IMG/VR virus record: IMGVR_UViG_2821013286_000001
Span: 1-64,000 of that record
DNA length: 64,000 nucleotides
Reading direction: 5' to 3' (one strand)
From: a virus
Lineage: Duplodnaviria > Heunggongvirae > Uroviricota > Caudoviricetes
This document shows, in pieces, positions 2,930 to 55,717 of this stretch. The notes beneath the pieces are model-generated. The model was not told where the DNA came from, ran no database searches, and saw only the letters and a list, made by a program, of their open reading frames with translations. The translations under genes were made by a program, and so were the position numbers. Position 1 is the stretch's first letter. Each line of letters begins with the position of its first letter.

Positions 2930-2931
2930 CC

Positions 2932-4824: not shown

Positions 4825-5012
4825 AGCAGTTCGCTACAAAAGCTGTCACGAAGCTCGCAGAGGCTTACCGGGACTATGACCGCGCAAATCCTGATATCGG
4901 CATGGGTCCGAGCGCTGGATACTTCGTGGACATGGCAGCCAAGGCTCTCGATCTGCAAAAGCATGAATACGATGCCGTTGAGGCAGAAAAGACATTGAGG
5001 AACACACGATGA
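4821..5012 (+). CDS. hypothetical small protein
   Basis: ATGA overlap at both ends (4821 and 5009); 63 aa. Confidence 0.35.
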   Translation: MKQFATKAVTKLAEAYRDYDRANPDIGMGPSAGYFVDMAAKALDLQKHEYDAVEAEKTLRNTR

Positions 5013-6949: not shown

Positions 6950-7005
6950 CAATTTCAGCGGGGTTCCAGAAACTCCGCTGTCATTCCGCTTTCTTTGCTG
7001 ATATT

Positions 7006-7028
7006 TATGGATAAACATTTACATACAG
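7006..7028. promoter_or_regulatory. palindromic intergenic element
   Basis: tatggATAAACATTTAcatacag, 5 nt before ATG 7033. Confidence 0.5.
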
Positions 7029-7032
7029 AAAG

Positions 7033-7581: not shown

Positions 7582-7593
7582 TTGGAGAATAAA

Positions 7594-8349: not shown

Positions 8350-8370
8350 CCGTAAACCCACGAAAATAAT

Positions 8371-8395
8371 CATATATTTATATTTACTGAATATT
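8371..8395. promoter_or_regulatory. degenerate copy of the palindromic element
   Basis: catatatttatatttactgaatatt upstream of the RuvC-like gene. Confidence 0.25.
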
Positions 8396-8409
8396 ATCAG
8401 GAGTAACAA

Positions 8410-14701: not shown

Positions 14702-14744
14702 GCCGGTTCTTACCCACCACGAAAAGTCATATCTAGAATTATCA

Positions 14745-14766
14745 ATAGATATTTATACACACAGGA
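14745..14766. promoter_or_regulatory. palindromic intergenic element (half-site strong)
   Basis: aatagATATTTATACAcacagg before gene 14773. Confidence 0.4.
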
Positions 14767-14772
14767 GAATTT

Positions 14773-15318
14773 ATGTTTGATAAAGTGACAATCGGCCAGG
14801 TTCTGAGCGGCGAAGTTACACCGACCACCGTCGATACCTATCTGGACAATCTGAAGAAGGCGCAGGAACTGGCTGTCGATGTCAAGGAAGTCACTGAGCT
14901 TCGGTCACAGCTCCTGGATTATGTCGGCAAGATCAACACGGTTCTGAACGTTGTTCGCACAGTCTCCTCTGCCGCCCTCAACGTCTCTGACATCGAGGGC
15001 GCCAAGAGCCTTATCGATCGTGTGCGCGATGAGTTCCCGGAACAGATCGTAACGAGCTTCATTGGCGTCGAGGTCGTTGATGCCGACAAGCCGTATGATC
15101 ATCAGGACATGGTCGATGAAGTCGAAGCTGTGAAGGAAGTCGCAAAGGAATACCCGAAAGGCATTCCTGTGATCACGCTCAATCTCAGCGAAACAGATGG
15201 CAAGTCGTCGGAAAAGGTTCGTGAAGCCATTACCTCGCTGCTGAAGCAAGGCAACGTTCCACTGTTCGGTCACGCTGGCGGCATCGTTCGCGGTCCTGGC
15301 GCACGTCGGGTTATGTGA
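14773..15318 (+). CDS. hypothetical protein
   Basis: 181-aa ORF after a palindromic element; AGGAG SD. Confidence 0.5.
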   Translation: MFDKVTIGQVLSGEVTPTTVDTYLDNLKKAQELAVDVKEVTELRSQLLDYVGKINTVLNVVRTVSSAALNVSDIEGAKSLIDRVRDEFPEQIVTSFIGVEVVDADKPYDHQDMVDEVEAVKEVAKEYPKGIPVITLNLSETDGKSSEKVREAITSLLKQGNVPLFGHAGGIVRGPGARRVM

Positions 15319-15340
15319 TGCGCCGCATCGTCACTGAGGA

Positions 15341-15385
15341 AGGGCTATTCGCTATAGCCCTCCTCGTTTTCGTCCTGATTATAAT
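15341..15385 (+). terminator. intrinsic terminator-like hairpin AGGAAGGGCTAT..ATAGCCCTCCT + CGTTTTCG
   Basis: After gene 14773..15318. Confidence 0.45.
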
Positions 15386-15408
15386 AAAAGTCCTTTTTGG
15401 GGTCTGAA

Positions 15409-16008
15409 ATGACACGTATTGGTAATGCGATGCACACCGCTGCCGGTGGCATCTACTATCCGTTTGATCCACGCGTTGAAGAAGTGGATATCTACACAAT
15501 TGCCCATCACCTTGCGACGCGCGGTCGCTTTAACGGCGCAACGCAGCACAAGAAGCATCCAAGCCGCATCTTCTATTCTGTCGCGGAGCATTCCGTTTAC
15601 GTGGCTTGGTATGTCGAGCACATTCTGAAGCGACCGGACCTGGCACTGACTGCACTACTGCATGATGCGGCTGAAGCCTATAACGGCGATCTGATCCGGC
15701 CGCTGAAGTACAGCCCAGAATTCTCTGCGCCGTTCAAGGCTGTCGAAGAAATCAATGAGGCGGTGATTGCGAAGGCGTTCAATACGCCCTTCCCTATGCC
15801 GCATGAAGTGAAGCTTGCGGATGAGGCTGTCGGTCGTGCAGAGCTTCAGCAGATTGTGCCGAATCCGATTGATCGCGGACCAAACCACTTCGAAGGCGAT
15901 GCGGTCGCCAATATCGAAATCGAAATGTATGAGCCAATCTATGCGCGAAATATGTTTCTGATGGAGTTCAATCGGCTCGTCCCTGCCGAGCAACAGGTGG
16001 AGTGGTAG
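15409..16008 (+). CDS. HD-domain phosphohydrolase (YfbR-like 5'-deoxynucleotidase)
   Basis: HS...H ... LLHDAAEAYNGDL (H..HD motif) with downstream conserved D; ATG 15409 (track TTG 15397). Confidence 0.65.
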   Translation: MTRIGNAMHTAAGGIYYPFDPRVEEVDIYTIAHHLATRGRFNGATQHKKHPSRIFYSVAEHSVYVAWYVEHILKRPDLALTALLHDAAEAYNGDLIRPLKYSPEFSAPFKAVEEINEAVIAKAFNTPFPMPHEVKLADEAVGRAELQQIVPNPIDRGPNHFEGDAVANIEIEMYEPIYARNMFLMEFNRLVPAEQQVEW

Positions 16009-22750: not shown

Positions 22751-25234
22751 ATGCAAGTTTCTCAGATTGCGTCCCTGGACACGCACGTGGTCCTGGGTGG
22801 CGAAAGTGCGCGCGCTTTTAGCATCTCTGATGCGCCTGAATTCTTCACTGTCCTTTCCGACACGCTCTATCAGCACAAAAAGCTCGCTGTTGTCCGCGAA
22901 GTCATCTGCAACGCCTACGATGCTCACATCGTGACGGGTAAGACGGATGTGCCAGTACAGGTCACGTTGACAGATAAGAACCTTGAGATCCGTGATTTCG
23001 GTCTCGGCATTCCCGACGACAAGATTGCGCCGATCTATTGCGTCTATGGGGCCTCTACAAAGGCTGCCGATGGAAAACAGACCGGTGGTTTTGGTCTCGG
23101 TTCGAAGGCGCCTTTCGCTTATTCCGACCACTTCACGGTCACGAGCTGCCATAACGGCGAGAAAACTGTCTATGCGATCTCTCGCGGTGGCGCTGAGACG
23201 GGCGGTCGTCCAGAGGTTCGCGCCGTCGTTCGCATGAAGACCGACGAAACAGGTCTGTCCGTTTCAATTCCGTTGCAGGAAAACGATCGCAATCAGTTTG
23301 AGATCCTGATCAGACGGGTCACGCAGCTCGGCGGAATGAATGTGTCGCTCAATGGCGTAGATATTCCAAAGATCGAATATGATCGCCCTGGCAATGCAGG
23401 CTTCGTCCTAATCCCCTCTTATTCGGACATAATGAGAAATCTGGACAATTACCGGACGACGGTTTTTGTGCGCTACGGAACTGTGGTCTATCCGGTCGAT
23501 GCTGGTCGAGGCGATAGTGAGCTGGACGAAGTGCTTCGTTCGATTGGCTTTGTGCTTGGTTCCAATAGAGCAATTATCGTTCAAGCGCCGGAACACTCCA
23601 TCGGTGTAACACCTTCACGTGAGTCCCTTTCTTACACCAAAAAGACGATGCAAACGCTCGTCCAGATATGTACGTCTGCATTCCATCACATAAAGCGCCA
23701 GATGTCTGTCAGCTTTGCCAACGACTTCGATCATGCGCTCGCTAAGAATAAGGAAAAAGGCGCAGATAAACGCGAAGTGATCTCGCTTATGCTCGGCTCG
23801 TTCGATGGGTCAAGGTTGGACTACAACAAGTCGAACCCTTCGTTGGTAGCGGCGGCCAATGACGGTTACATCAGCAGCCTTGACACAATTGGCTCTGAGC
23901 TTGCCGACAATTACCTGAGTTCGTTCGCTGCGTCCGCGCGTAAGACAGCCTCTCGTCTGGTAGGAAAGCATCATCCAGAGTTGGCGCGCTTGCTTCGCAG
24001 ATGGTCGCCATCTGGCAGTAAATATGACCTGAAACGCGACTACAACAAATTCATGTTGAAGCGCCTAAGCAAGATCAAGGCTTTGATCCAGCCGGTCAAG
24101 TCCGGCTATTTCGATGTGCGCACGAATAGCATCAAGAATGACAGGTTTGAGACCATTTTTGATAGCAGTCAGTTAGTGGCGGATCGAATTGTTGTAAGCC
24201 GAATTCTGCGCGATGCTTACGATGACACCGCCAAGCAGAAATTTGAGTATCATTGCGAATACCACACCGGCTATTACCGAAATTTTCCGGTTTTCACGAT
24301 CAAAAGTGACCTGCCGGAAGCGCGGATTAAGAAGATCACCAAACTCGCAAACAAGCTCGGCTTTCAAATCTCGTTCGCCGAGTACGTGAAGCCAGTTCGG
24401 AAGGCTCCTGCGCCGAAACCTAACTCTGGTTTTCTACGCGCATCGAGCTTCCATCGCTTCGATTATGATGGAAAGATTCAGCCGCGCAACACACTTGAGC
24501 AGGCCGAACTTGAGCGCGTTCCGACGGCGAAGTCCTTCATTCGTGTCACGAGGGCAAGAAACGCAAGACATCTATTCTGGCTTCAGGAAGAGCTGCGGCG
24601 CGATTTTAGCGCGTTCGCCACCCTTTATCCTGACACGGTTCTTGCTACCGATGCTGAAGAGGAAAAGAAGCTGATCAAGCTCGGTGCGCGTCCTGTCCTT
24701 GAGGTTGTTCATGAGGAGCTGAAGGAGGCAACAAAGTTGCAGTCCGCTGCACTTGCATTGGCTTTGCGTCTGCAATGGCACGCCGGGTTCGACGGAGATC
24801 GATACGGCTACGGCTCCAGGGTGAACGATATCGTGAAGCTTTGCTCTGTTTCAGCCGAGTTTGCCAAGTTGGTTCTCGGTGTGAGTGTCAAATACGACGA
24901 AAAGACGGAGCGAATTGCGAAGTTGGGCGATGCTGTTCGTACGGCGATTGGTGTCGCTGGCTTCTCAGAGCAGCGCCGCAACCCATTCACCCACCTGACC
25001 GAACTCTACAATAAACTGAAGGAGAAATATCCAAAGATAATCGGCAATACTGACGCTGTGAAAGAGGCGACAGATTTTATGAAAATAATTGATTCCAACT
25101 ACATCCGCGCAGCAAGCCACAATGATCCCGCTTGCGCTCGTGATGTAATAAATACTGCGAAATATCTTAAACAGAAATTTTCGAAAACTCTCAAGGCTGA
25201 ACAAGCCCAAGCTGTTGTTAAGGAGGCAGCGTAG
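22751..25234 (+). CDS. rIIA: rIIA-like protein (GHKL ATPase N-terminal domain)
   Basis: N-box AVVREVICNAYDAH, G1 IRDFGLGIP, G2 GGFGLGSKAPFAYSDHFTVTSCHNGEK; these track recalled T4 rIIA segments AVVRELITNMIDAH and GGFGLGSKSPFSYTD; 827 aa. Confidence 0.75.
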   Translation: MQVSQIASLDTHVVLGGESARAFSISDAPEFFTVLSDTLYQHKKLAVVREVICNAYDAHIVTGKTDVPVQVTLTDKNLEIRDFGLGIPDDKIAPIYCVYGASTKAADGKQTGGFGLGSKAPFAYSDHFTVTSCHNGEKTVYAISRGGAETGGRPEVRAVVRMKTDETGLSVSIPLQENDRNQFEILIRRVTQLGGMNVSLNGVDIPKIEYDRPGNAGFVLIPSYSDIMRNLDNYRTTVFVRYGTVVYPVDAGRGDSELDEVLRSIGFVLGSNRAIIVQAPEHSIGVTPSRESLSYTKKTMQTLVQICTSAFHHIKRQMSVSFANDFDHALAKNKEKGADKREVISLMLGSFDGSRLDYNKSNPSLVAAANDGYISSLDTIGSELADNYLSSFAASARKTASRLVGKHHPELARLLRRWSPSGSKYDLKRDYNKFMLKRLSKIKALIQPVKSGYFDVRTNSIKNDRFETIFDSSQLVADRIVVSRILRDAYDDTAKQKFEYHCEYHTGYYRNFPVFTIKSDLPEARIKKITKLANKLGFQISFAEYVKPVRKAPAPKPNSGFLRASSFHRFDYDGKIQPRNTLEQAELERVPTAKSFIRVTRARNARHLFWLQEELRRDFSAFATLYPDTVLATDAEEEKKLIKLGARPVLEVVHEELKEATKLQSAALALALRLQWHAGFDGDRYGYGSRVNDIVKLCSVSAEFAKLVLGVSVKYDEKTERIAKLGDAVRTAIGVAGFSEQRRNPFTHLTELYNKLKEKYPKIIGNTDAVKEATDFMKIIDSNYIRAASHNDPACARDVINTAKYLKQKFSKTLKAEQAQAVVKEAA

Positions 25235-25235
25235 A

Positions 25236-26654
25236 ATGAGAAAGGTAACAGTAGCCGCAGCGATCATCACCAAAACGGGCGTTATGCTCTATACGGCTGA
25301 TGGCAAGGAAGTACCGCTCGCGTCAGATGGCTGGCGCACTCAGGAAATTCTTAACCTCGTAACGCCGGTCATCGCGCGCCGCAAAACTATCGAAATCGAC
25401 TTGGACAGCTTCTCGCTGGAGCATGAGGTCGAGCGCAAGACCAACGGCTTTGTTCGCTTCTTCCGCAAGGTCGGTGCGAGCATCACCAGTCTCTTTGGCA
25501 CGAAGGACGGTCAGACAGAACTCGTCACTGACACGCTTACGGAGGCCACAACCGTCGCTGTTGTCAACGGCAAGGAAATTCCAGGAATGGAAAACCTTGA
25601 AAACCACATGATCCACGCCGTTGAAAACGATCAGACGGAAGGTCTCAAAAACTTCCTGGACCGTCTATCTCGCGTGATTGATGAGCGCGGACACTCGGTG
25701 CAGGAACTCCTCAACTTCATGAAGAAGGCTGACCTTCCGATTGCCAATGACGGCTCGATCATCGCCTACAAGACGCTCAACAAGAGCGAGGATCGGTTCG
25801 TTGACTGCCACACCGGCAATGTCAAGCAGCGCGTCGGCTCGCGTGTATCGATGCCGATTGGTTTGGTTGATAAGAACCGCCGCACACTCTGCTCGACTGG
25901 TCTGCACATTGCGCGTCTCCGCTATCTGCGTGGTTACAACGGTAATGTTCTGACACTGGTTAAGATCGCACCGGAAGACGTCGTGAGCGTTCCCTACAGC
26001 GAACCTGACAAGATGCGTGTGGCAGCTTACCACATCGTCAAGCTGCTTCCAGATGACGCTGCGCGTGCCGTTTTCAGCGGTGCATCGATCGCAGGGAACA
26101 AGGAAGCTGAAAAGATGCTTGCTGACGTGATTGCTGGAAAGCACATTCATGTCATCGAGGAAGTTCACATCAAAGGCTCGTACGGCACTGATATCGAAAC
26201 CACTGTCCTTGATGACAAATATAAGCCGGTCGAATCGATTGCCGATTTGTCAACGAAGCCTGTGAAGGTCGAGCTGGTCAAGGAAGGTGGTGGCGGTAAG
26301 CCCGTCGATATCGAGAAGATCCGCGAAACCGCAGACAAGGCGATCGCTGAAAAGGCGAGCGAGACAGAAGTCAAGAAACCTGAAGTCTCCAACGTTGTCG
26401 AGTTCGATGCGGCCAAGACGGTGAACAGTTCAAAGTCGAAGTCGAAGCCGAAGAAGAAAGCCGCCGCTGCGGTGAAGGCTGAGGTTGCGAAGGCTCGTCC
26501 ATCGGTCCCTGCCGCGCCTGACGGCATGAGCGAGCGTGACTTCCAGGTTCTGGCATTGCTCGACAAGGGTGTGTCCAAATCCCAGATCGAACGTGACATG
26601 AAGATTTGCCACAAGACGATCAATAAGATCCTGAAGAAGCATCGCGCTGCCTAA
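25236..26654 (+). CDS. rIIB: rIIB-like protein with C-terminal HTH
   Basis: Central CSTGLHIARLRYLRGY...PEDVVSVPYSEPDKMRVAAYHIV resembles recalled T4 rIIB core (CSRGLHVCS...DVVSIP...KMR); C-terminal LuxR/sigma-region-4-like helix-turn-helix (ERDFQVLALLDKGVSKSQIERDMKICHKTINKIL); AGGAGG SD. Confidence 0.55.
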   Translation: MRKVTVAAAIITKTGVMLYTADGKEVPLASDGWRTQEILNLVTPVIARRKTIEIDLDSFSLEHEVERKTNGFVRFFRKVGASITSLFGTKDGQTELVTDTLTEATTVAVVNGKEIPGMENLENHMIHAVENDQTEGLKNFLDRLSRVIDERGHSVQELLNFMKKADLPIANDGSIIAYKTLNKSEDRFVDCHTGNVKQRVGSRVSMPIGLVDKNRRTLCSTGLHIARLRYLRGYNGNVLTLVKIAPEDVVSVPYSEPDKMRVAAYHIVKLLPDDAARAVFSGASIAGNKEAEKMLADVIAGKHIHVIEEVHIKGSYGTDIETTVLDDKYKPVESIADLSTKPVKVELVKEGGGGKPVDIEKIRETADKAIAEKASETEVKKPEVSNVVEFDAAKTVNSSKSKSKPKKKAAAAVKAEVAKARPSVPAAPDGMSERDFQVLALLDKGVSKSQIERDMKICHKTINKILKKHRAA

Positions 26655-26683: not shown

Positions 26684-26738
26684 AGAGGCGCATTTCGGTG
26701 CGCTTCTATTCAAGCAATTGTTTTCATGGAGATTTTTT

Positions 26739-27326
26739 ATGCCTGTTACGATCCCTTCCATCCCGTTTCAATCATTCCAGAAGATTGCACGCGCAAACAA
26801 ATTCTCGCTTGGCTGCGTTATCACCGAAAAGATCGACGGTTCCAACGGCCAGATCATGATTGTTGACGGTCAGATCGTGGGTGTTGGCTCGCGCAATCGT
26901 TGGATCGCGCCAGGTAAGGCGAATGACAACTTCGGCTTCGCTGGCTGGATCGAGCGCAACGAGGAAGAAATCCTCAAGCTCGGTGACGGCACGCATTTTG
27001 GCGAGTGGTATGGTGCCGGTATCCAACGTGGCTATGGTCTGACCGGCAGCGACAAGCGTTTCGCTCTGTTTAATGCTGCACGCTGGAGCAACGGCGAGTC
27101 CCGTCCGGCTTGCTGCGGTGTTGTGCCTGTATTGTATGCTGGCGATTTCGATGCCGACATTCTCGATGAAGTCATGACGAACTTGGCGAAGAACGGTTCT
27201 CAGGCCGTCCCTGGCTACATGAAGCCGGAAGGTGTGATCGTCTACATCCCGTCCATCAAGACACTGTTGAAGGCGACATACGACAATCCAGACGGAAAGT
27301 GGCGTGAGCTGCAACTCGCCGCCTAA
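26739..27326 (+). CDS. ATP-dependent RNA ligase-like nucleotidyltransferase (Rnl2-like)
   Basis: Motif I EKIDGSN (KxDGxN), motif IV PEGVIVY, motif V K-rich; only about 196 aa (nucleotidyltransferase domain only). Confidence 0.5.
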   Translation: MPVTIPSIPFQSFQKIARANKFSLGCVITEKIDGSNGQIMIVDGQIVGVGSRNRWIAPGKANDNFGFAGWIERNEEEILKLGDGTHFGEWYGAGIQRGYGLTGSDKRFALFNAARWSNGESRPACCGVVPVLYAGDFDADILDEVMTNLAKNGSQAVPGYMKPEGVIVYIPSIKTLLKATYDNPDGKWRELQLAA

Positions 27327-33720: not shown

Positions 33721-35121
33721 ATGAATATTACAGGGCATACTCTTATCGAATGGGGCTTTAAGCCTGGTCCGATGTTTAAGCAGATGATTGCGGCTGCAAA
33801 CGAAATGCGCGCCAACTGCGTTCTGGACACGGACATTATCGCTCAACTGCACGATCTGGAGCCGGTTGTCGCGCCAACCATTCCGCTGCGCACAAATTCG
33901 ATCCCTTTCGGCCAGTTCATCGAGCCGGAAACTGCTGATGAAATTGAGAACACGGAAGCTGTTATTCGTCACATGGACGCGCTCATGCGCGTCCCAACGA
34001 TCAAGGCTGGCGCAATCATGCCTGACGCCTGTCCTTCCGGCTCCGCGCTTGGAACAATCCCGGTCGGTGGTGTCGTTGCATGCGAGAACGCCATTCATCC
34101 AGGCTTCCATTCTGCCGACATCTGTTGCTCGATGGCTATTTCGATCCTCAATCGCCGTGACGATGTTGGAAAGGTTCTGGACGCGGCGATGAAGTCCACG
34201 CATTTCGGCCCAGGTAAGCGCGCAGCGAGCGAAGTGCGTCAGAATAAGGAAGTTGTTCATCTGATCGAGAAATTCGCTCAGAACCCGTTCCTTGACGGTT
34301 TGGAGAGCTATGGCACGCACCACTTCATGACGCAGGGCGACGGTAATCATTTCCTCTACGTTGGTGAGCTGGAATCGAGCGGCCAGATGGTCATCGTAAC
34401 CCATCACGGTTCTCGCGGCCTGGGAGCGCAGCTCTACAAGCGTGGCAAGCGTGTGGCCGAGAAACACACCAAGATCGTGGCTCCGCGCGTCCCGTTACAC
34501 AACGCCTGGATTGAGGCCAGCTCCATTGATGGTGAAAACTACTGGCAGGCGCTTCAGACGGTTCGCCAGTGGACGAAGATGAACCATTTCGCCATCCACG
34601 ACCTGATTGCTCGGCGTTTGGGCGTTCGCGTGAACGACCGTTTCTGGAACGAGCATAATTTCGTGTTCCAGAAGTCTGACGGCCTTTTCTATCACGCCAA
34701 AGGCGCAACACCTGCTTATGACGGCTTCAGTGCTGATGACAGCGGCTACACGCTCATTCCCCTGAATATGTCTCAGCCGATCCTGATTGCCGGCCACACC
34801 AACTATGATCACGCGCTTGGCTTCGCGCCGCATGGTGCCGGTCGGAATATGTCGCGTACGCAGCATATCAAGCGCCTCGCAGCCGAGTTCGGCGATGACC
34901 GTGGTCTTGGTCCAAAAGCGATTGAGGCAATCATGGCGCGTGAGACGAAAGGTCTGGACGTTCGGTTCTACACGGGCGCGCCGGACGTGTCTGAGCTGCC
35001 TACTGCCTATAAGAACGCCGCACAGGTGCAGGAACAGATTCGAAAGCACAGACTGGCGACGATCGCGGATCGCGTGATGCCGCTTGGTTCAATCATGGCA
35101 GGTGAAGTGCACTGGAAATAA
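33721..35121 (+). CDS. rtcB: RtcB RNA 3'-phosphate ligase
   Basis: RtcB motifs MPDACPSGSALG, GDGNHFLYVGE...VTHHGSRGLGAQ, YHAKGATP, APHGAGRNMSR. Confidence 0.8.
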   Translation: MNITGHTLIEWGFKPGPMFKQMIAAANEMRANCVLDTDIIAQLHDLEPVVAPTIPLRTNSIPFGQFIEPETADEIENTEAVIRHMDALMRVPTIKAGAIMPDACPSGSALGTIPVGGVVACENAIHPGFHSADICCSMAISILNRRDDVGKVLDAAMKSTHFGPGKRAASEVRQNKEVVHLIEKFAQNPFLDGLESYGTHHFMTQGDGNHFLYVGELESSGQMVIVTHHGSRGLGAQLYKRGKRVAEKHTKIVAPRVPLHNAWIEASSIDGENYWQALQTVRQWTKMNHFAIHDLIARRLGVRVNDRFWNEHNFVFQKSDGLFYHAKGATPAYDGFSADDSGYTLIPLNMSQPILIAGHTNYDHALGFAPHGAGRNMSRTQHIKRLAAEFGDDRGLGPKAIEAIMARETKGLDVRFYTGAPDVSELPTAYKNAAQVQEQIRKHRLATIADRVMPLGSIMAGEVHWK

Positions 35122-47551: not shown

Positions 47552-47782
47552 ATGTCTCAATCCGTTTCAAGCACGTCTGACGAACGCACCGTCAACAACA
47601 CCATGCGCCATGCCTACCGTGTTCTCTCCGATGAGGAGAAGGCGAACATGGGCAAGGTTAAGGATATGGGCCTCGAATTCCATAGTCTTGTCGATGGCCT
47701 TGGCGCCAGCCGCGAACTCTCCATCGCAAAAACCAAAATCGAAGAAGCCGTCATGTGGGCAGTCAAGCATCTGACTGCCTAA
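47552..47782 (+). CDS. hypothetical protein
   Basis: First gene of a + operon after the palindromic element at 47468. Confidence 0.45.
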   Translation: MSQSVSSTSDERTVNNTMRHAYRVLSDEEKANMGKVKDMGLEFHSLVDGLGASRELSIAKTKIEEAVMWAVKHLTA

Positions 47783-48082: not shown

Positions 48083-48372
48083 TGGCCAATCTCTACCGTA
48101 CCAAGGGTGAGAGGGTTAAGGCGCAGATCGTAGATTTCAACGCGATCAGCGCCATAATCGCTTTTCTGCAGGAGCGGAAAGTCGCCTTCGAACTTAAAGT
48201 CGTCAGCGAGAATGGTGAGCGTCCTCGCGTTTATGTGTCGTTCGTTTCTCCGCTACCAGAAGGCAGCGTTACGCTGCACGCCAATCCTGCCGACATGATA
48301 GTTCTCAAGGACGATCGGCTATCTGTCTGGAAGCAGGACGTGTTCTACAGGGAATACGAGGTAATCCGATGA
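48082..48372 (+). CDS. hypothetical protein
   Basis: TAATG overlap; 96 aa. Confidence 0.4.
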   Translation: MANLYRTKGERVKAQIVDFNAISAIIAFLQERKVAFELKVVSENGERPRVYVSFVSPLPEGSVTLHANPADMIVLKDDRLSVWKQDVFYREYEVIR

Positions 48373-48872
48373 GTGTGATTGCCTATCGTGACGGCGTGAT
48401 GTGCGCCGATACTCGTGCCTGGAGCGGCTCTCATCGACCAATCGGCGCTAAGCGCAAGATTCATGCATTGGAAGATGGAACGCTCGTTGGCGTCGTTTCC
48501 ACGATCGTCGGCTTTGGTGAGCGCCTGGCTGAGTGGGGGAGGGGAGGCTTCAAGGAAGAAGAGTTTCCAGATCCTGAATGCGAGATCGATTTCGCAATGC
48601 TCGTCGTGAAGCCGGATGGATCTGTTCTCTACTACGACAATTGCCGCTTTCCAACCGGACCACTCGAAGCCCCTTACTTCGCGTTTGGCAGTGGCGGTTC
48701 ATACGCCTTGGGAGCCATGCATGCCGGAGCGTCTGCCGAAGATGCCATTCATGCGGCCATCAAATTCGATACAGTCTGCGATTACCCCCTTCAGAAGATC
48801 GAGCGCGCTGTCGATGGACCGGTTCACTCTTCCGTCTATCACCACGTAAGGGGGTCCTATTATGTGCGGTGA
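48369..48872 (+). CDS. HslV/proteasome-beta-like Ntn-hydrolase peptidase
   Basis: Aligns along its length to HslV by eye: N-terminal S1 nucleophile position (MSVIAYRDG ~ TTIVSVRRNG), conserved Lys (GAKRKIHAL ~ GNVKKVRRL), VGFGERLAEW ~ AGFAGGTADAF, FGSGGSYALGAMHA ~ IGSGGPYAQAAARA. Confidence 0.5.
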   Translation: MSVIAYRDGVMCADTRAWSGSHRPIGAKRKIHALEDGTLVGVVSTIVGFGERLAEWGRGGFKEEEFPDPECEIDFAMLVVKPDGSVLYYDNCRFPTGPLEAPYFAFGSGGSYALGAMHAGASAEDAIHAAIKFDTVCDYPLQKIERAVDGPVHSSVYHHVRGSYYVR

Positions 48873-49069: not shown

Positions 49070-49201
49070 ATGATCCGAATGATCATCCTGTTTCTCTTCG
49101 CAGCCTTCACGCTCTGGGTAATTCAGTATCAGCCGCCAACACGCGAAAAAGATCCCGTCGTCACCCAAAAAGAGCTTGAATATAAAGGTGAATCTGTATA
49201 A
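49070..49201 (+). CDS. small membrane protein
   Basis: MIRMIILFLFAAFTLWVIQY... single TM helix. Confidence 0.3.
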   Translation: MIRMIILFLFAAFTLWVIQYQPPTREKDPVVTQKELEYKGESV

Positions 49202-49219
49202 ACATTTATTTACATTTTC
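49192..49219. promoter_or_regulatory. palindromic intergenic element
   Basis: ctgTATAAACATTTATTTACAtttt at the end of the + operon. Confidence 0.45.
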
Positions 49220-49243
49220 AGCACGAAAGAATTTTCAGTCAAA

Positions 49244-49277
49244 AGGGCGGTTGTCATGTATGTGACCCGCCCTTTTT
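49244..49277. terminator. bidirectional terminator between convergent + operon and ParG-like gene
   Basis: AAAAGGGCGG...CCGCCCTTTTT (A-tract / hairpin / T-tract). Confidence 0.55.
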
Positions 49278-49282
49278 CGTTG

Positions 49283-49546
49283 TCAGCCCTTGGAATTTTC
49301 CTTGTACCAAAGGTCCACTGCCTCATAGATCACCTGGGTCAATGTCTTATCGACCGCGACAGCTGCGCCCTTCAGCTTACGATGCCACTCACGATCCACG
49401 ATCACATTGAGCTGTGAGGTGGTTTTGGCGCGCATGTTATCCGCTGGCTTGATGTTGGTATCAAGCGACGTGGCAAAATACGAGCGCTGTGCGGTGCGCG
49501 GTGCCTTCTTTGGCGTGTAGTCTTCTTCATCGTCTGCCATCTTCAC
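49283..49546 (-). CDS. ParG-like ribbon-helix-helix partition protein
   Basis: 87 aa, basic N-terminus, C-terminal RHH-like segment LNVIVDREWHRKLKGAAVAVDKTLTQVIYEAV; 4-nt overlap with the upstream ParA gene. Confidence 0.45.
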   Translation of the reverse strand: MKMADDEEDYTPKKAPRTAQRSYFATSLDTNIKPADNMRAKTTSQLNVIVDREWHRKLKGAAVAVDKTLTQVIYEAVDLWYKENSKG

Positions 49547-50184
49547 ACTCCTGTCCGCTCATCAACCAGTTTATAAATTTCTGTCAGAAGACGCTTGGCG
49601 TCACGCTTGAGCGTGGCAACCTTGACTTCCTGCACCGCTAGTCCTGTCGAGTTCGCAAACGCGTAGGTCGGTCGGAACTTGATCTCGGTCTTGGCGATCT
49701 TGAAACCGCCGCCGCTAATCAATTCGCGCGTCTCCTTGACGGCAATCGCGCTATCGACGGATTTGCTGATGACGAACAGGATATCATCTTTTTTGGCACC
49801 TTTATCGACCAGCTCCAGCGCGAACGCGAGCTGCGGCTCCACATCGTCTGCGATCGGCGCGGTCGGAATAAGGATCAGACGAGAGGCGAGGGCGATATCG
49901 AGCGAGGTATCGTGACTGTCTGGCTTGCCATCGGCCACAACCAGATCGACGCGCTCTTTGCTAAGCATGGACGGCTTGGCATAAGGCTTTGCATCAATCG
50001 CAGGCTCGTATTGGGCCGCCTTGCGTTTCTCATTCCATTTGAAGGAGGTTAGCTGTGTGGTGTTGAAGTCGGCAATCTTCACAGACCAATCATTGCTCGC
50101 ATAGCCAACCGCAATCATGCGCGACAATGTGGATTTTCCGACGCCGCCCTTCTGGCTGAGACAGGAAATAATGACCGGTTCCAT
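49543..50184 (-). CDS. parA: ParA/ParF-type partition ATPase (small type Ib)
   Basis: Deviant Walker A SQKGGVGKST; 213 aa; followed by a small RHH gene. Confidence 0.75.
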   Translation of the reverse strand: MEPVIISCLSQKGGVGKSTLSRMIAVGYASNDWSVKIADFNTTQLTSFKWNEKRKAAQYEPAIDAKPYAKPSMLSKERVDLVVADGKPDSHDTSLDIALASRLILIPTAPIADDVEPQLAFALELVDKGAKKDDILFVISKSVDSAIAVKETRELISGGGFKIAKTEIKFRPTYAFANSTGLAVQEVKVATLKRDAKRLLTEIYKLVDERTGV

Positions 50185-50223
50185 AGGAATCCTCGTGGCA
50201 AATCAATGTTTGATTTACCTTAT

Positions 50224-50259
50224 AATCTAGGTTCCTAACAACCTATTAAACCTAGAATT
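50224..50259. promoter_or_regulatory. imperfect inverted repeat AATCTAGGTT-N15-AACCTAGAATT in the parA upstream region
   Basis: Candidate operator or centromere-like site for the ParG-like protein; flanked by direct repeats TGATTTACCT at 50211 and 50341. Confidence 0.4.
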
Positions 50260-50274
50260 ATATAAATCTATGAA

Positions 50275-50300
50275 AATATAAATAAATGTTTACACAACCT
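50275..50300. promoter_or_regulatory. palindromic intergenic element (ParA upstream region)
   Basis: aatataaaTAAATGTTTACAcaacc, about 90 nt upstream of parA on the minus strand. Confidence 0.5.
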
Positions 50301-50322
50301 TAACTTTTAGGTATAGACAAAC

Positions 50323-50343
50323 TCATGACGTTCCACGTCATGA
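50323..50343. promoter_or_regulatory. inverted repeat TCATGACG-ttcca-CGTCATGA in the parA upstream region
   Basis: Arms of 8 bp, 5-nt spacer. Confidence 0.4.
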
Positions 50344-50379
50344 TTTACCTTGTGTCATTTTCTTGTTTTGTTCAGGAAA

Positions 50380-50414
50380 CCCCTGCTCTTTCATAGAGCA
50401 GGGGTCTTTTTTTT
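50380..50414. terminator. GC hairpin + T8 tract at the 3' end of the helicase gene region
   Basis: ACCCCTGCTCT-ttcat-AGAGCAGGGGT TTTTTTTT; the T-tract is on the + strand although the neighbouring gene is on the minus strand. Confidence 0.45.
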
Positions 50415-51990
50415 AGGCTGCTTTCTTGAACTCCTGAAAGATTTCCCAAGGCAGCTGTTCGACAATACCTTCTGCAAAGCCAGGCGTGCTGCGCACGATA
50501 TTCTCACGCTGGCGCGCATGATCGCGGAGCACGTCCGGAGCGTTGGACGAGTAGTCGATGAAAAATGCAAAGTTCGGCATGCCTTTCTTGGCGCGCAATC
50601 CACGACCGATCTGTTGCCGAAGTTGTACTTCCGCCTTCATACCGCCCAGGCGCTGCACAAGACCAATAGCTGGAACATCTACACCTACGTCCAGAATAGT
50701 CGTGCCGATAACGCCATCCAGTTCACCATCTTTCAACTTACGCAGCGTCTCGCGACGTTCACCCATCTTGTCTTCGCCCTGCAAAAACGCAAACTTCAGA
50801 CCGGCAGCCTTGTATTTCTCCAGAATGACCTGTCCGTGGCGCTTGCGAGCAATCAGTGCCAATACCGGCAGGGAGTAGCTTCTGGCTAACAGGGCATCTT
50901 CCAGTGCCTGTTCATGCATATTGGTGTTGTCGATATAGCCAAGCGTGTAGGCGCGCTCATATGGCGTCGATTTATAGAGCTTCACTGCTGCTGGAACGTC
51001 TCGGAACAGGAAGTATGGCTTTGCCAGAATGCCGCGATTAATTAACTCCTCTTCGGAAATGTCGATGAGAATGCGTCCGAACGCCGCCATGAGGCGCATA
51101 TTGTCTTCGGCAGACGAGCGCATGAACGGTGTGGCGGTCAGTGCGACGCGGATCTGAGCATTTTTGCAATACTGCAGGATCTTGAAGTAGCTTTCGCCGC
51201 CTGCTTCGTGCGCTTCCTCACCAATTACGACCTCGACCAGAGACAGAAACTTCTCAATGGCCATCTTCCGGCGCTTTTTGCGGTCATAATTATCCTGCGC
51301 GAGCTTATCGATCTCTTCATTGGGCATATTCGGATTCTTGCCCTTGCTGAGATTGATTGATTGAATGATGGCTCGACGTTCTGCGCGAAAATCCGGCTCT
51401 TCCAGTGATTGAACAAGAGTTTGAACCATGCCGAGGTTCACACCCTTGACGAAACTCATTTCTCCGTCGCCGATCTGACCGGTGCTCATGCCTATATCTT
51501 CGAGCTGGCTCTTCATCTGGTAGAGTAGGATGCCGCGCGTCGTGATAAAAAGCGTGATCCGCTTGAAGCGAGCGGCAATCAGTTTGGCGATCTTTGACTT
51601 ACCGCCGCCAGTCGCCACACGAATGATGCCGTTCTGATGCTTCTCGACCTGACGAAGCGCCTTCAACTGGTAATCGTATTTTGGATCATCATTGCCGAAC
51701 TCGTCTACAATCGGAGATTCCGGACCAAGCGGTAGCATTGGCGGTTTCTTGATGTGATGCACATTGAAGCCAGCACGCGTCAGTTCCTCACGCACGACCT
51801 CTGCGAAGCCTGCCGGAAAGGTATGATTGGAGACATTGTAGAAGCTCGACTTGCCATCCCAGGAAAGAGATCCGAAGCCAGTATTCGAGTGCTCATAGGA
51901 CAGAAGGTTATTTACGAGGTTCACAACCTGCTTGGTTGGGTCGATCAGCTTCGCGATGACGGCGTTCGACGCCAGTTTGACAGTAATCAT
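50413..51990 (-). CDS. SF2 DEAH-box helicase
   Basis: Motif I GGGKSKIA, motif II VIGEEAHEAGG (DEAH-type), motif III TATPFM, motif VI QQIGRGLR. Confidence 0.7.
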   Translation of the reverse strand: MITVKLASNAVIAKLIDPTKQVVNLVNNLLSYEHSNTGFGSLSWDGKSSFYNVSNHTFPAGFAEVVREELTRAGFNVHHIKKPPMLPLGPESPIVDEFGNDDPKYDYQLKALRQVEKHQNGIIRVATGGGKSKIAKLIAARFKRITLFITTRGILLYQMKSQLEDIGMSTGQIGDGEMSFVKGVNLGMVQTLVQSLEEPDFRAERRAIIQSINLSKGKNPNMPNEEIDKLAQDNYDRKKRRKMAIEKFLSLVEVVIGEEAHEAGGESYFKILQYCKNAQIRVALTATPFMRSSAEDNMRLMAAFGRILIDISEEELINRGILAKPYFLFRDVPAAVKLYKSTPYERAYTLGYIDNTNMHEQALEDALLARSYSLPVLALIARKRHGQVILEKYKAAGLKFAFLQGEDKMGERRETLRKLKDGELDGVIGTTILDVGVDVPAIGLVQRLGGMKAEVQLRQQIGRGLRAKKGMPNFAFFIDYSSNAPDVLRDHARQRENIVRSTPGFAEGIVEQLPWEIFQEFKKAA

Positions 51991-52072: not shown

Positions 52073-52831
52073 ATGATAAACCCCGAATATCTAACGGTTT
52101 CGGCATCGACACTTCGCAAGAACCCCTGGAACACGAACATCGTGTCTGCGGACAATGAAGCGAAGATACGAGAGTCGATCACGCGAAACGGTCTTTTCAA
52201 ACCGATCATAGTCAGAGAGGTAGCGGGTATTGCCGGCTACGAGATCATCGGCGGTGAGCACCGTTGGGAACAGGCGATTGAGCTTGGACATACAGACGTT
52301 CCGATCGTCAATCTCGGCCAGATCGATGACCGTCATGCCAAAGAGATCGGCATCATCGACAATGCGCGGTACGGCGCTGACGATACGGTTGGCCTCGGCG
52401 ATATTCTGAAGGAACTTGGCAATCTCGATGAGATCCAGTCATTCCTTCCCTACGGCGACACTGATCTGAAGCTGCTTTTTACGGCAGGCGAGATCGATCT
52501 CGATGCACTCGGCGATGAGGCTACCGATGCTGAGACAGCCGAAGCTGAAGGCGTTGAGGAAGAAGTTGCCGCGAAGCCGGTCAAAACCCACACGGTTGTG
52601 CGCTTCAAAATCTCCCTTTCAGATGCAGAACGCGTAACCGCACTTGTTGCCAAGACACAGAAAACGCACGGCTACACGACGGAAGATGAGCTGACCAATG
52701 CCGGTGACGCTCTAATCCACATTCTCTCGCAGTTTTTCCCGCAAGCCGCATCCAAGAGCGAAAGCGACGACGATTTCGGCTCGGAAATGAACATTCTCGA
52801 TGAACTTGATTACGCCCTGGAGGCAAAATGA
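52073..52831 (+). CDS. ParB-like nuclease-domain protein 1
   Basis: ParB N-terminal domain pattern KPIIVREVAG...YEIIGGEHRWEQAIELG...VPIVNL; acidic C-terminus. Confidence 0.6.
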   Translation: MINPEYLTVSASTLRKNPWNTNIVSADNEAKIRESITRNGLFKPIIVREVAGIAGYEIIGGEHRWEQAIELGHTDVPIVNLGQIDDRHAKEIGIIDNARYGADDTVGLGDILKELGNLDEIQSFLPYGDTDLKLLFTAGEIDLDALGDEATDAETAEAEGVEEEVAAKPVKTHTVVRFKISLSDAERVTALVAKTQKTHGYTTEDELTNAGDALIHILSQFFPQAASKSESDDDFGSEMNILDELDYALEAK

Positions 52832-53496
52832 TTCATACCGTAGAACTTTGGGACGTTGAAAAGCTCGTTCCTTACGAACTCAACGCCAAAAAGCATCCTG
52901 ATTTCCAGATCGAGAAGCTTGCACGCTCGATCAAGAAGTTCGGCTTTTCCAGCCCGATTGTCGTCTGGGGCAATGGCGAGATCATCGCCGGCCACGGTCG
53001 CCGCCTGGCTTCAATCAAACTTGGACTGACGAAGGTTCCGGTTGTCGTGCGCGCGGATCTCTCGAAGGCCGAAGCTGACGCGATGCGGCTTGCTGACAAC
53101 CGCGTGGCCTCGACTGAATATGATCAGGAAATGGTGCAGGAAGAGCTGCGCCGTCTCAATGAGCTGATCATGACCGAAGACATCGATCTGGACCTGTCAC
53201 TGACTGGCTATGACGAAAAGGAACTCAATTTCACGCTGGCCGATATGGGCGAAATGAGCTTCGACCACTTCGTTGATGACGTTGGCGCTGCTCTCGAAGA
53301 GCAGAAACAGGAAACGGCCAAGGTTATTGCCGACACCGACGACACGGCAGCGCCTGTGGTGGATGCCCTCGGCTTCAAACGCCTTCCCATTGCACAGTCG
53401 CGCCAGCTGCGCGAGTTCATGCGGCAGATTGAAACCCAGACCGGCCTGAAAGGTGCTGACGCTCTCATGCAGTTCCTCACGGCTTCTTTGGCCTAA
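52828..53496 (+). CDS. ParB-like nuclease-domain protein 2
   Basis: SPIVVWGNGEIIAGHGRRLASIKLGL.KVPVVV; ATGA overlap with paralogue 1. Confidence 0.6.
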   Translation: MIHTVELWDVEKLVPYELNAKKHPDFQIEKLARSIKKFGFSSPIVVWGNGEIIAGHGRRLASIKLGLTKVPVVVRADLSKAEADAMRLADNRVASTEYDQEMVQEELRRLNELIMTEDIDLDLSLTGYDEKELNFTLADMGEMSFDHFVDDVGAALEEQKQETAKVIADTDDTAAPVVDALGFKRLPIAQSRQLREFMRQIETQTGLKGADALMQFLTASLA

Positions 53497-53530
53497 TTTT
53501 CTAGATTTATATAAAAATAGGATTGTTGCC

Positions 53531-53953
53531 ATGAATAGCGACGAGAACACGGAGAGCAACGTAATCGACATGCGTAAATTTCGGGAAACCGGAAAGCGCG
53601 TGTCGCTCGACGCTATTCAGGAAACCAAGACCGAGAAAAAGGAAGTCGCGCTTGATGAAGTGAAAGGCCGGATAGCCGAGTATCTCGCCAACCTGACTAA
53701 GCTGGCAGAGCAGGGGAGGCTGGAAAGTATCGTCATTGTTGCCAGCTCCACTGACGGTCCCTTTCACATGAACACGATCATCGATCCACGATGCTCGAAC
53801 ATGACGCAGGCTTACACCATGGCTGGCGCGCTCGATTCAGCACGTCTGCAAATGCTCGATATGAGCGCATGGGCACCTGAGCTTCTCGAAGATGGCAGCA
53901 CATTTGAGCAGGACGATTTTAGCACCGAATTTATTGAGGAAGATGATGAGTGA
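53531..53953 (+). CDS. hypothetical protein
   Basis: ATG 53531 within track ORF 53453..53953. Confidence 0.4.
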   Translation: MNSDENTESNVIDMRKFRETGKRVSLDAIQETKTEKKEVALDEVKGRIAEYLANLTKLAEQGRLESIVIVASSTDGPFHMNTIIDPRCSNMTQAYTMAGALDSARLQMLDMSAWAPELLEDGSTFEQDDFSTEFIEEDDE

Positions 53954-54611
53954 GTACGTAATTGATCGTGCTTTCACGACATCCGTGGACCGCACACCGC
54001 GCGTTCTGGAAGTCGCTGAAGCATTTGGCCTGGGTCTGTCGGACAAGAAATTCGTGATTTACGACAATCTGGCGCTAGAAGTTTCGCCAGGCGATGTCGT
54101 TTATATCACTGGACAGTCAGGCTCCGGCAAATCACTCCTGCTGCGCGACCTGTCACAGAAAATGCGCGAAAGCGGTCTGAAGGTAGCGGATCTCAACGAG
54201 GTCGAGCTTCCGGATGTTCCGGTCATCGAATCTCTGGGAGAAAGCACTCTCGAAGCGACGGAATTGCTGGCGAAGGCCGGCATTTCGGACGCCTACATTT
54301 ATATTCGCAAACCAGGCGAGCTGTCGGACGGCCAAAGATACCGCCTGAAGCTGGCAAAAGTCATGGAACAGGACGCGGATGTGTGGATTGCCGACGAATT
54401 CGGCGCCATCCTGGACCGCGTGACCGCCAAGGCTGTTGCATTCAACATGGCAAAAGTTGCGCGCCGCCTCGGCAAGATCTTCATGGTCGCCACGACGCAC
54501 ACGGATCTTGTGTCCGAGCTGGCGCCGAACCTTTTCATCGACAAGCGTTTCCGTGAGAAAGTGAATATCGAGCGCACGGACATTGTGGAGGCTCTCAATG
54601 TCGCTGCTTGA
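53950..54611 (+). CDS. P-loop ATPase
   Basis: Walker A GQSGSGKS, Walker B VWIADEFGAILD; ATGA overlap. Confidence 0.55.
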
Positions 54612-54855
54612 CAAAATGGCTCTGTTTTTTGCCGAAGCAAACTATTTTCTGATGATTGCAACAAAGGGCTACCAGCTTGAAGGCATTTTTATCGTCGCTG
54701 CGATCCTGATTGTCGCGCTGGCCTTGATTGTCGGCCTTGTCTGGCTTGTTTTTGACGTGTTCTGGTCGCTGTTCAAGCATATCAGCGCGAAGCTGTTCAA
54801 AAACAGGTCAGAAACCGACACAGAAGCTCAGGGGAGCGATCCGAATGCATCCTGA
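54598..54855 (+). CDS. small membrane protein
   Basis: Two TM helices (IFIVAAILIVALALIVGLVWLVF). Confidence 0.35.
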   Translation: MSLLDKMALFFAEANYFLMIATKGYQLEGIFIVAAILIVALALIVGLVWLVFDVFWSLFKHISAKLFKNRSETDTEAQGSDPNAS

Positions 54856-55717
54856 GTACGAGACGATCTTAAAATACGAACGCTCGCCAGTGCAGCGTTT
54901 TGAGCTTTTGGATGAAATGATGGTGGAGCCTGGCTCCGTCGAAGATTGGGATCTTCTGCACGACCTTCACTACAAGGCCGAGAAGCTGCCTATTGGTCCG
55001 CATTTCTTCAAGCTCACGCTGCGCGGCGATACAATTGGCGTCCTCGTAACTGGCGTTGCAAAGGGCATGGTGCGTGAGCGCAACATGGTCTTTCCGAACC
55101 TGAAGCCAGGCGCAGGCGAGACCAAGCTGACCAACACGAACCGTTACCACTACATCAACCGGAATTTCCGCGTTGTGTCGCGCTTTGTCGTGGACACGAT
55201 GTACCGCGGTATCGGCTGCGGCTACCGGATGATGAATCTGGTCTCGCGTATGGAAGGCATGCAGTTCATCGAAATCCAGTCGTCTATGTCGAAGTTCAAT
55301 TACTTCGGCCAGAAGGCAGGCTTCCATTTCGTCAAGCCAATGAACGCCAACAATCACGAGAAGGTCATGCGCTTCTTCCGCAAGAACTTCAAATCCAACC
55401 CGCAGGATTTCGAGGCTCTTGTGCAGGAGGCTGAAGCTATGTCCGCCGAGCACCAGGAAGAGCTTCTTGTCGTTCTGAAGGAATTCTACGGCGGCAGCTC
55501 TGCATTGGAGAACACGACGCGCGGCGGCGTGCAGGCCGAAGGTCGTATTGCGCGCATGACGATCCGCGATTGCATCAAGGGCATTCAGCAGATTGGTCTG
55601 GCTTCACCGATGTACGGCATCTGGCGCAATCCGGATTTCAAGCGCGACATTCCGAAGATCCTGCCGCTGTCGGCATTCGACAATCAAAAGCCCACCGAAA
55701 AACTGGTGCTGCCATGA
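54845..55717 (+). CDS. GNAT-like acetyltransferase-fold protein
   Basis: RFVVDTMYRGIGCGYRMMN resembles GNAT motif A (V...YRG.GIG..L). Confidence 0.4.
   Translation: MHPEYETILKYERSPVQRFELLDEMMVEPGSVEDWDLLHDLHYKAEKLPIGPHFFKLTLRGDTIGVLVTGVAKGMVRERNMVFPNLKPGAGETKLTNTNRYHYINRNFRVVSRFVVDTMYRGIGCGYRMMNLVSRMEGMQFIEIQSSMSKFNYFGQKAGFHFVKPMNANNHEKVMRFFRKNFKSNPQDFEALVQEAEAMSAEHQEELLVVLKEFYGGSSALENTTRGGVQAEGRIARMTIRDCIKGIQQIGLASPMYGIWRNPDFKRDIPKILPLSAFDNQKPTEKLVLP

Follow-up and report, generated by a model that had tools for sequence, protein, structure and literature searches.

Does a tailed phage that carries genes of the plasmid-partition type live as a plasmid, and would those genes segregate it? 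We addressed this question for a stretch of 64,000 nucleotides (positions 1 to 64,000 of IMG/VR record IMGVR_UViG_2821013286_000001, Caudoviricetes; hereafter the window), in which an initial annotation had marked a parA gene, a small downstream gene, upstream repeats and an adjacent helicase gene as a possible sign of a phage-plasmid lifestyle. Our analysis points to a likely answer: we judge it probable that the locus is a type Ib (ParF/ParG-like) partition cassette, which would keep a ~108-kb siphovirus phage-plasmid of Ochrobactrum sp. P20RRXII, replicated by RepC and belonging to the pLM21S1/RHEph10 family, stable in its plasmid form. The proposed lifestyle is supported by RepC, by circularly permuted assemblies, by relatives that are closed plasmids and by the literature. 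Coordinates of the features discussed are collected in Table 1.

The upstream gene of the cassette, parA, encodes the small minus-strand ATPase that had been read from its open reading frame (ORF), and both its deviant Walker box (KGGVGKST) and its homology to TP228 ParF confirmed that reading. The Walker A motif is S-Q-K-G-G-V-G-K-S-T, with the P-loop at residue 12. Profile searches matched the protein to PHROG 164 'ParA-like partition protein' (E = 1.7e-21) and to NCBIfam ParA_partition (E = 2e-24), as well as to Pfam CbiA (E = 1.2e-6) and, weakly, to Pfam MipZ and ParA. When the whole PDB was searched, the only matches at E < 0.001 were to TP228 ParF/ParA (4DZZ and 5U1G), and in the alignment of residues 5-207 with 3-205 of ParF the Walker A, A' and B motifs are all preserved. 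The protein thus has the KGGxxGK[ST] motif and a length within the ~190-230 aa of type Ib ATPases, and it carries no N-terminal helix-turn-helix (HTH) domain.

Only 2 nt separate the parA stop codon from the ATG of the next gene, a spacing that indicates translational coupling. The product of this gene had been given as 87 aa; an ORF of that size is indeed listed from the GTG at 49546, but the 85-aa form that begins at the ATG appears more likely because an AGGAG lies 7 nt upstream of it and the form deposited at NCBI uses it. The ribbon-helix-helix (RHH) character suspected for its C-terminus was borne out, as the protein exceeded the Pfam ParG gathering score (22.8-22.9 bits against 21.4, residues 42-84), and profiles built from 8 and 15 members of its family matched ParG 1P94 best (E = 4.5e-7 and 8.4e-7, respectively), with RHH proteins alone (E73, 56B, omega and CopG) in the next ranks. 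A word search with the protein returned its own cluster only; at NCBI, the identical small protein is named 'plasmid partition protein ParG'. The RHH domain follows a basic, probably flexible N-terminal tail, in which the family conserves a P-[KR] basic patch (R15 and R19 in this protein), and just ahead of the beta-strand all members share an invariant Asn within an [AS]-[DNE]-N-[ML] motif (A-D-N-M here). Beyond the 3' end of the gene, a G+C-rich hairpin is the probable terminator of the parAG operon.

The pairing of the two genes is conserved well beyond this element. Across Hyphomicrobiales and Rhodobacterales, 17 loci were examined, and the parA and small-gene pair was kept in all 16 relatives that could be read; a 23-kb Bartonella plasmid carries the same pair adjoining RepA, a purely plasmid context. 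These observations bear on whether the ATPase is instead a MipZ/MinD-like modulator of host division with no part in DNA segregation, as its NCBI name, 'division plane positioning ATPase MipZ', would have it. The Pfam MipZ match reached 21.6 bits, just above the cut-off, and covered the N-terminal 80 residues only; the best full-length matches are TP228 ParF/ParA and NCBIfam ParA_partition, and neither the coupling to a ParG-like gene in every relative nor the pair beside RepA on a small plasmid favours a division modulator. We therefore rejected this assignment as highly improbable.

In the same operon, then, a small RHH protein is encoded directly downstream of parA, which is the type Ib arrangement, and the recurrence of this coupling in every member assigns the system of the whole family to type Ib. 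The initial annotation had treated type Ib partition as a trait of P1 and N15, which is at odds with established knowledge: P1 ParAB and N15 SopAB are type Ia systems, with a large ParA that has an N-terminal HTH domain, a large HTH protein (ParB or SopB) and a centromere downstream. P1 ParA-ParB-parS and N15 SopA-SopB resemble the system proposed here in that partition keeps a prophage as a low-copy extrachromosomal replicon, but their replication initiators are different ones, N15 itself is linear, and neither system is related in sequence to the present element. Type Ia membership was considered for this locus and rejected: its ParA has 213 aa with the P-loop near the N-terminus, the downstream gene encodes an 85-aa RHH protein, and the window's two genes with ParB_N domains lie in a separate, divergent unit.

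In those two paralogues Pfam ParB_N was the sole domain detected, and their NCBIfam matches lay far below cut-off; their transcription unit diverges from the helicase gene and is uncoupled from parA. We argue that the partner of this ParA is the ParG-like RHH protein and that the ParB_N proteins probably serve another role. The point leads to a small correction of the literature, in which these elements are listed as having 'parA, parB, repC': the 'parB' of those lists is a ParB_N homologue, but the gene coupled to parA in every member is the ParG-like RHH gene.

If the pair forms a partition system, its operator and centromere would be expected near parA, and the earlier reading had placed them in the upstream region on the basis of inverted, direct and palindromic repeats. 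All of these repeats are present in the 228 AT-rich base pairs between parA and the helicase gene (50185-50412). They comprise an inverted repeat, AATCTAGGTT (50224-50233) and AACCTAGAATT (50249-50259), with a perfect 8-bp core, TCTAGGTT (50226-50233) and AACCTAGA (50249-50256); a palindrome, TCATGACG..CGTCATGA, at 50323-50343; an 11-bp direct repeat, TGATTTACCTT, at 50211-50221 and 50341-50351; and a G+C-rich hairpin at 50379-50405. Measured against 2000-3000 dinucleotide-preserving shuffles of 50185-50378, the repeats exceed chance: p was ~0.009 for the direct repeat and ~0.04 for the longest short-loop inverted repeat, and among tetramers ACCT/AGGT showed the strongest over-representation (7 copies where 1.7 were expected; family-wise p ~0.013). 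Its extended form WACCTW also occurs 7 times in this segment, compared with 0.26 per 194 bp across the window.

The best candidate sites for the ParG-like protein are four of the ACCT/AGGT boxes together with the TCTAGGTT/AACCTAGA repeat, all within a 52-bp segment that also holds the proximal copy of TGATTTACCTT (candidate operator/centromere, Table 1). They sit just downstream of a minus-strand, -10-like TATAAT hexamer (50257-50262), where an autoregulatory operator may be expected. No good -35 accompanies the hexamer, and a sigma-70 consensus scan of the parA-helicase intergenic region yielded no promoter for parA. The segment is nearly invariant across three variants of the element. In relatives, the sequence upstream of parA is unrelated, yet each has 2-4 short iterated motifs of its own in the same position: ATAGCTA-type motifs in pLM21S1, B1VFA and Chelativorans, three copies of ATCTGCCTAGG in Paracoccus, CGAAAAGAC repeats in Phyllobacterium, and long inverted repeats in Shinella and RHEph10. 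Such lineage-specific motifs would fit binding proteins and operators that co-evolve in pairs, and they lend comparative support, not proof, to the assignment. The earlier operator/centromere proposal is a candidate reading for the non-random repeats as a set and not for each of them, as some probably belong to a dispersed motif or to a candidate small RNA and its terminator. The hairpin at 50379-50405 in particular, taken before as an operator palindrome, is an intrinsic-terminator hairpin with its T-run on the + strand.

Homology to TP228 ParFGH suggests how the parts might act together, from DNA binding at a centromere through ATPase stimulation to stabilisation of the plasmid. Dimers of the 85-aa RHH protein would bind short reiterated sites in the AT-rich stretch immediately before parA, where the candidate sites overlap the likely parA transcription start, so that binding could both repress the parAG promoter and build the partition complex. 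ATP-bound ParA dimers would cover the nucleoid, their ATP hydrolysis would be stimulated by the ParG-like protein through its basic N-terminal tail, in the arginine-finger-like manner of type Ib systems, and the resulting ParA gradient would separate sister plasmid copies before division. The likeness to ParF-ParG-parH of TP228 extends to an ATPase of ~210 aa that lacks an N-terminal DNA-binding domain and aligns with ParF from end to end, to a downstream protein of 76-90 aa with a disordered basic tail and a C-terminal RHH domain for which ParG is the best match, and to iterated boxes of tetramer scale upstream of the ATPase gene. In TP228 these boxes are ACTC, whereas the candidate boxes here are ACCT/AGGT at 9-12-bp spacing. 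The systems also differ in that identity between them is low (phmmer E ~1e-7), the small-protein family here has its own invariant [AS]-[DNE]-N-[ML] motif, and the replicon is a phage genome.

The contig that contains the window bears on the nature of that replicon. It belongs to an isolate genome and is 107,825 bp long (107,890 bp at NCBI), of which the window takes up positions 28130-92129. The ParA, ParG-like and CobS proteins match their counterparts in Ochrobactrum sp. P20RRXII, a rhizosphere isolate tolerant of glyphosate (PMC7840833), with full identity. Upstream of the window the contig carries genes for DnaB, primase, DNA ligase, RepC, CobT/S, a sigma factor, DnaE, a gp32-like protein and a RecA-like protein. 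The repC gene (contig positions 13753-14835, ~13.3 kb upstream of the window) encodes 360 aa with Pfam RP-C and RP-C_C domains, scores 151.3 bits against NCBIfam RepABC_RepC (cut-off 150), and falls in the size class of a short RepC clade whose members reside on 109-120-kb contigs. The element also has a complete siphovirus structural and packaging module: terminase, SPP1-type portal, capsid, tape measure, tail L/K/I/J, fibres and amidase, with the complete tail module downstream of the window. Its G+C content is 52%, lower than that of relatives. Beside repC (L019 5090-7336, contig 13753-15999) we observed an upstream 71-aa gene and a divergent 138-aa gene, whose counterparts in pLM21S1 are annotated as an RHH and an HTH regulator; replication and lysogeny are probably controlled from here. 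No Rfam family of counter-transcribed RNA was detected near repC.

A second assembly, of 109,074 bp and from a different strain with small indels, contains the same genes in the same circular order with a different break point; there, the window's first gene is found at 79.4 kb and parA at 20.8 kb. Between the tail-K gene and dnaB this assembly has 15,974 bp, against 16,028 bp for the corresponding interval across the ends of the first contig, and hence the genome assembles as a ~108-kb circle without host flank. The copy in the second strain also carries small genes absent from the window, a GNAT acetyltransferase gene and ORFs of 104 and 105 aa, which shows accessory-gene turnover between close variants.

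The missing integrase was correctly noted for the window, where Pfam scans of the large ORFs and the precomputed Pfam matches on the source contig agree. Pfam integrase, recombinase and resolvase domains were likewise absent from contig positions 8,664-107,825 (~92%), with the content of the first ~8.7 kb (positions 1-8663) partly inferred from the second assembly only. An integrated prophage, with its integrase and att sites beyond the window and par genes left over from a captured plasmid, could in principle hide in such gaps, given that the window is 64 kb of a ~108-kb element and ~8% of the contig was not read directly. Against this, the 107.8- and 109.1-kb contigs match the size of complete relatives and have no host genes, their ends differ and each is continuous across the other's break, and pLM21S1 has no integrase or recombinase either. 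With no such domain in ~92% of the genome, we rejected integration as a very remote prospect.

Relatives in the plasmid state make the same case for an extrachromosomal form from another side. In tblastn searches, ParA was 41-52% identical to homologues in Rhizobium phages (B1VFA, V1VFA-S, RHph_X66, RHEph10 and others) and on at least six closed circular plasmids of 115-120 kb, among them pLM21S1 and others from Shinella, Rhizobium beringeri, Pararhizobium and two strains of Methylobacterium. A contig scan with a single protein found nothing; the alignment-based scan gave 9 loci. The short RepC clade and this ParA family occur on stand-alone contigs of 109-120 kb in Ancylobacter, Phyllobacterium, Paracoccus, Faunimonas and others. 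Searches of a plasmid collection for near-identical DNA gave nothing for positions 40000-64000 and, for positions 1-25000, only a 309-bp, 75%-identical RNR stretch. The RepC look-ups P0041 and P0060 proved to be other family members (66-75% DNA identity) and not this element.

Publications have already described the family, with its plasmid state and its par and rep modules, and NCBI annotation already uses the ParG name. pLM21S1 was isolated as plasmid DNA; the 2015 description presents it as a plasmid-like prophage that has REP (RepC-like) and PAR modules but lacks an integrase (PMC4447125). It is related to RHEph10 (PMC4447125; PMC5537653) and is counted by Pfeifer et al. as a known phage-plasmid (PMC7969092). 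The 2025 announcement of B1VFA and V1VFA-S lists parA, parB and repC and describes the phages as 'exhibiting phage-plasmid-like features' (PMC12509600). We compared the present element with pLM21S1 (Sinorhizobium sp. LM21) and the Rhizobium phages RHEph10, RHph_*, B1VFA and V1VFA-S. Its ParA is 41-50% identical to theirs, and the element shares with them the size class (108-122 kb), the absence of a detected integrase domain and a gene order that runs RepC - HTH - CobT/S - sigma - DnaE ... RNR ... helicase - parA - small RHH gene and continues with ParB_N x2 - ABC ATPase - terminase - portal - capsid - tail. It differs from them in its host genus (Ochrobactrum/Brucella), new for the group, in its lower G+C content, in the lack of any megablast-level match bar the RNR stretch, in the position of parA directly after the helicase gene, in a control region unrelated in sequence and in a window free of tRNA genes.

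Several points weigh against a partition cassette that stabilises a plasmid. The stabilising role, here and in the family homologues, would rest on homology, and the Pfam and NCBIfam scores of both ParA and the ParG-like protein are modest. A single-sequence AlphaFold2 model renders the 85-aa protein as one long helix (pLDDT 83, pTM 0.40); we judged this model uninformative because the RHH fold is an intertwined obligate dimer, though it lends no support either. Relatives have direct terminal repeats of 3.6-3.9 kb, and collapsed terminal repeats of virion DNA would look equally circular in a short-read assembly, so that circular permutation shows 'not integrated at a fixed site' and not 'plasmid'. 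Furthermore, the family members that form plaques (RHEph10, B1VFA and the RHph phages) and those in the plasmid state are different ones, and pLM21S1 was not inducible with mitomycin C (PMC4447125).

The last two points are also what could be said for a virulent or pseudolysogenic phage that uses parAG and repC during infection, for genome positioning or a carrier state, or keeps them as relics, without stable plasmid upkeep: the same modules are found in RHEph10, the RHph phages and B1VFA/V1VFA-S, all of them obtained from soil by their plaques. We regard such a lifestyle as unlikely. The full-length contig was recovered from bacterial isolate assemblies in at least two sequencing runs, and a third run, of unspecified sample type, yielded a partial contig. 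Among relatives, at least six have been finished as closed plasmids. Plasmid pRlX6 of R. beringeri is 93-94.5% identical to phage B1VFA, and hosts far apart from one another have kept parA, parG and repC intact.

The element adds an Ochrobactrum/Brucella-group host to the RepC-type phage-plasmids of Alphaproteobacteria. Members of this widespread family are present, as contigs that stand alone at 109-120 kb, in Rhizobium, Sinorhizobium, Shinella, Pararhizobium, Methylobacterium, Ancylobacter, Phyllobacterium, Paracoccus and Faunimonas. In practical terms the gain is modest and consists of a defined 1.3-kb cassette with candidate sites. Only two parts could lead to something new, a dispersed motif and a candidate small RNA, both represented among the repeats upstream of parA.

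The 14-mer TAAATAAATGTTTA at 50279 is dispersed rather than specific to parA. With up to two mismatches allowed, the window contains 19 copies where 0.14 would be expected, and 99 kb contain 29; the extended form, TGTAAATAAAYGTTTAYACA, is a quasi-palindrome of 14-20 bp. Long + strand ORFs make up 81% of the sequence but hold only 5 of the 29 copies, and each + strand copy precedes a + strand gene by 15-140 nt and shares its orientation. Just three copies are perfect, one upstream of the capsid gene and two that bracket parAG. The bracketing copies (49195 and 50277) form a 37-nt, 81% inverted repeat around the cassette, and both are kept in a more divergent variant, in which the 49195 copy has a T-to-C change at a degenerate position. 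The 5' part of TGTAAATAAAYGTTTAYACA resembles the T4 late promoter, TATAAATA, and the element encodes a sigma factor with region 2 only (L012 1368-2018). The motif is probably a class of phage promoter or operator. We looked for a consistent -35 element upstream of the motif; spacing was inconsistent, and we make no claim for one.

Next to the 50277 copy, the strand opposite parA may encode a non-coding RNA of ~120 nt. A terminator scan placed the intrinsic terminator hairpin of 50379-50405, with its T-run to 50414, on the + strand only, and the 123-nt stretch here folds at -42.3 kcal/mol (z = -6.0). Its hairpin stems are kept in three variants while a loop changes from 3 to 4 nt, and a substitution in the terminator among the variants gives a U.G pair in the + strand RNA, compared with a C-A mismatch on the minus strand. 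Through the direct repeat TGATTTACCTT, 11 nt of the candidate are complementary to the parA leader. A 23-codon hydrophobic + strand ORF (50325-50396) was considered as a type I toxin and rejected: 1-nt indels shift its frame in a close variant, and for that reason we take the region to be non-coding.

These features raise an alternative for the upstream repeats that would complement partition: that they are a mixture in which several are not ParG sites. The perfect copy at 50277 would then be an instance of the dispersed promoter or operator motif, whereas TCATGACG..CGTCATGA, the distal TGATTTACCTT and the G+C-rich hairpin would be parts of the small RNA, which could pair with the parA 5' leader via the 11-nt repeat. 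We hold this as a tentative proposal, possible but on the less probable side. The excess of the motif and its placement upstream of + strand genes speak for it, as do the strand-specific T-run, the fold energy, the U.G-compatible substitution, the indel-broken ORF and the stems that persist while loop length changes; a change of this kind would usually disrupt binding by a dimeric protein. On the other side, no Rfam family matches the candidate RNA (at gathering scores none was found in the window, and 49100-50500 gave only sub-threshold matches at chance level), the comparison draws on three closely related sequences that offer a single weak compensatory pair, and in the third variant the distal TGATTTACCTT has lost 1 nt. 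The hairpin could also simply end helicase transcription bidirectionally, and the promoter role of the motif is read from position alone.

A bolder extension would wire parAG into a genome-wide control network through TGTAAATAAAYGTTTAYACA, with the 50277 copy driving a small RNA that pairs with the parA leader; this we consider doubtful. In that case the motif would serve either as a class of promoters for the phage's own sigma factor with region 2 only, or as operators for a global repressor, P1 C1-like or KorB-like via the ParB_N proteins, and the lysis-lysogeny state would be coupled to plasmid partition. Partition proteins that double as global regulators offer a possible analogy, as a lead only, for the dispersed motif and the ParB_N proteins. 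In the delta-omega system of pSM19035, omega, which is among the weaker profile matches of the ParG-like family, is an RHH protein that binds heptad arrays; in IncC-KorB of RK2, KorB is a ParB-family protein that binds 12 dispersed palindromes.

Of the neighbouring genes, the helicase gene had been described as divergent from parA and possibly of service in replication. The first description did not hold and the second found no support: it lies upstream of parA on the same minus strand, co-oriented with it, and diverges only from the ParB_N genes (52073 onward). Its product is an SF2 enzyme of the XPB/RAD25/UvsW type (PDB relatives XPBII, RAD25 and UvrB; the counterpart in a distant phage is annotated UvsW-like), and DnaB, primase, DnaE and RepC are encoded elsewhere. 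The position of the gene is conserved in relatives with 1-4 extra ORFs before parA, none of which intervene here; it is a neighbour and stands outside the partition machinery. Beyond it, the block that begins with the ParB_N genes lies just upstream of the terminase gene in all relatives.

Table 1 Features of the partition locus and related elements (window positions unless a handle is given)
Feature	Position	Strand	Description
parG-like gene	49283-49540	minus	85 aa, ATG at 49540; alternative GTG start at 49546 (87 aa)
parA	49543-50184	minus	213 aa; small type Ib ParF-like Walker-type partition ATPase
Candidate operator/centromere	50211-50262		ACCT/AGGT boxes at 50217, 50229, 50241 and 50250 (spacings 12, 12 and 9 bp)
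G+C-rich hairpin	49241-49276		3' of parG-like gene; inverted repeat; conserved in two other variants
Perfect motif copy, TATAAATAAATGTTTACACA	50277-50296	+	Points away from parA; invariant in variants
Second perfect motif copy	49195-49214	minus	Downstream of parG-like gene; points away from it
Dispersed motif sites (examples)	1227, 9020, 12055, 20949, 37688, 47473, 49199, 50279, 60879, 61914		Also in L019 and L022
Candidate non-coding RNA	50295-50414	+	~120 nt; divergent from parA; hairpin 50323-50343, distal TGATTTACCTT copy, terminator
SF2 helicase	50413-51990	minus	525 aa; Pfam ResIII and Helicase_C; PHROG 16
Two ParB_N-domain paralogues	52073-53496	+	252 and 222 aa; PHROG 723 and 930
Conserved block	52073-55717	+	Two ParB_N proteins, 140-aa ORF, ABC-type ATPase, PHROG 886 protein
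Extra genes of second strain	L013 14440-14862, L013 16809-17123, L004 13709-14026		GNAT acetyltransferase, 104-aa ORF, 105-aa ORF

Other genes of the window deserve mention in their own right. An HslV-like peptidase gene (48369-48872, +; PHROG 1040, 2.6e-30) adjoins the par cassette and is conserved, with counterparts in relatives annotated 'peptidase S14'. At 1.5 kb from the cassette, a 76-aa protein (47552-47782, +) has a precomputed Pfam match to Acb2_Tad1_hairpin, an anti-CBASS/anti-Thoeris sponge family. No tRNA genes were found in the 64-kb window. An 827-aa HATPase_c_3 protein followed by a Phage_T4_rIIB-domain protein (22751-26654, +) looks like an rIIA/rIIB-like pair. Finally, an RNA ligase-family protein (26718-27326, +) and an RtcB ligase (33721-35121, +) suggest RNA repair, possibly directed against host anticodon nucleases.

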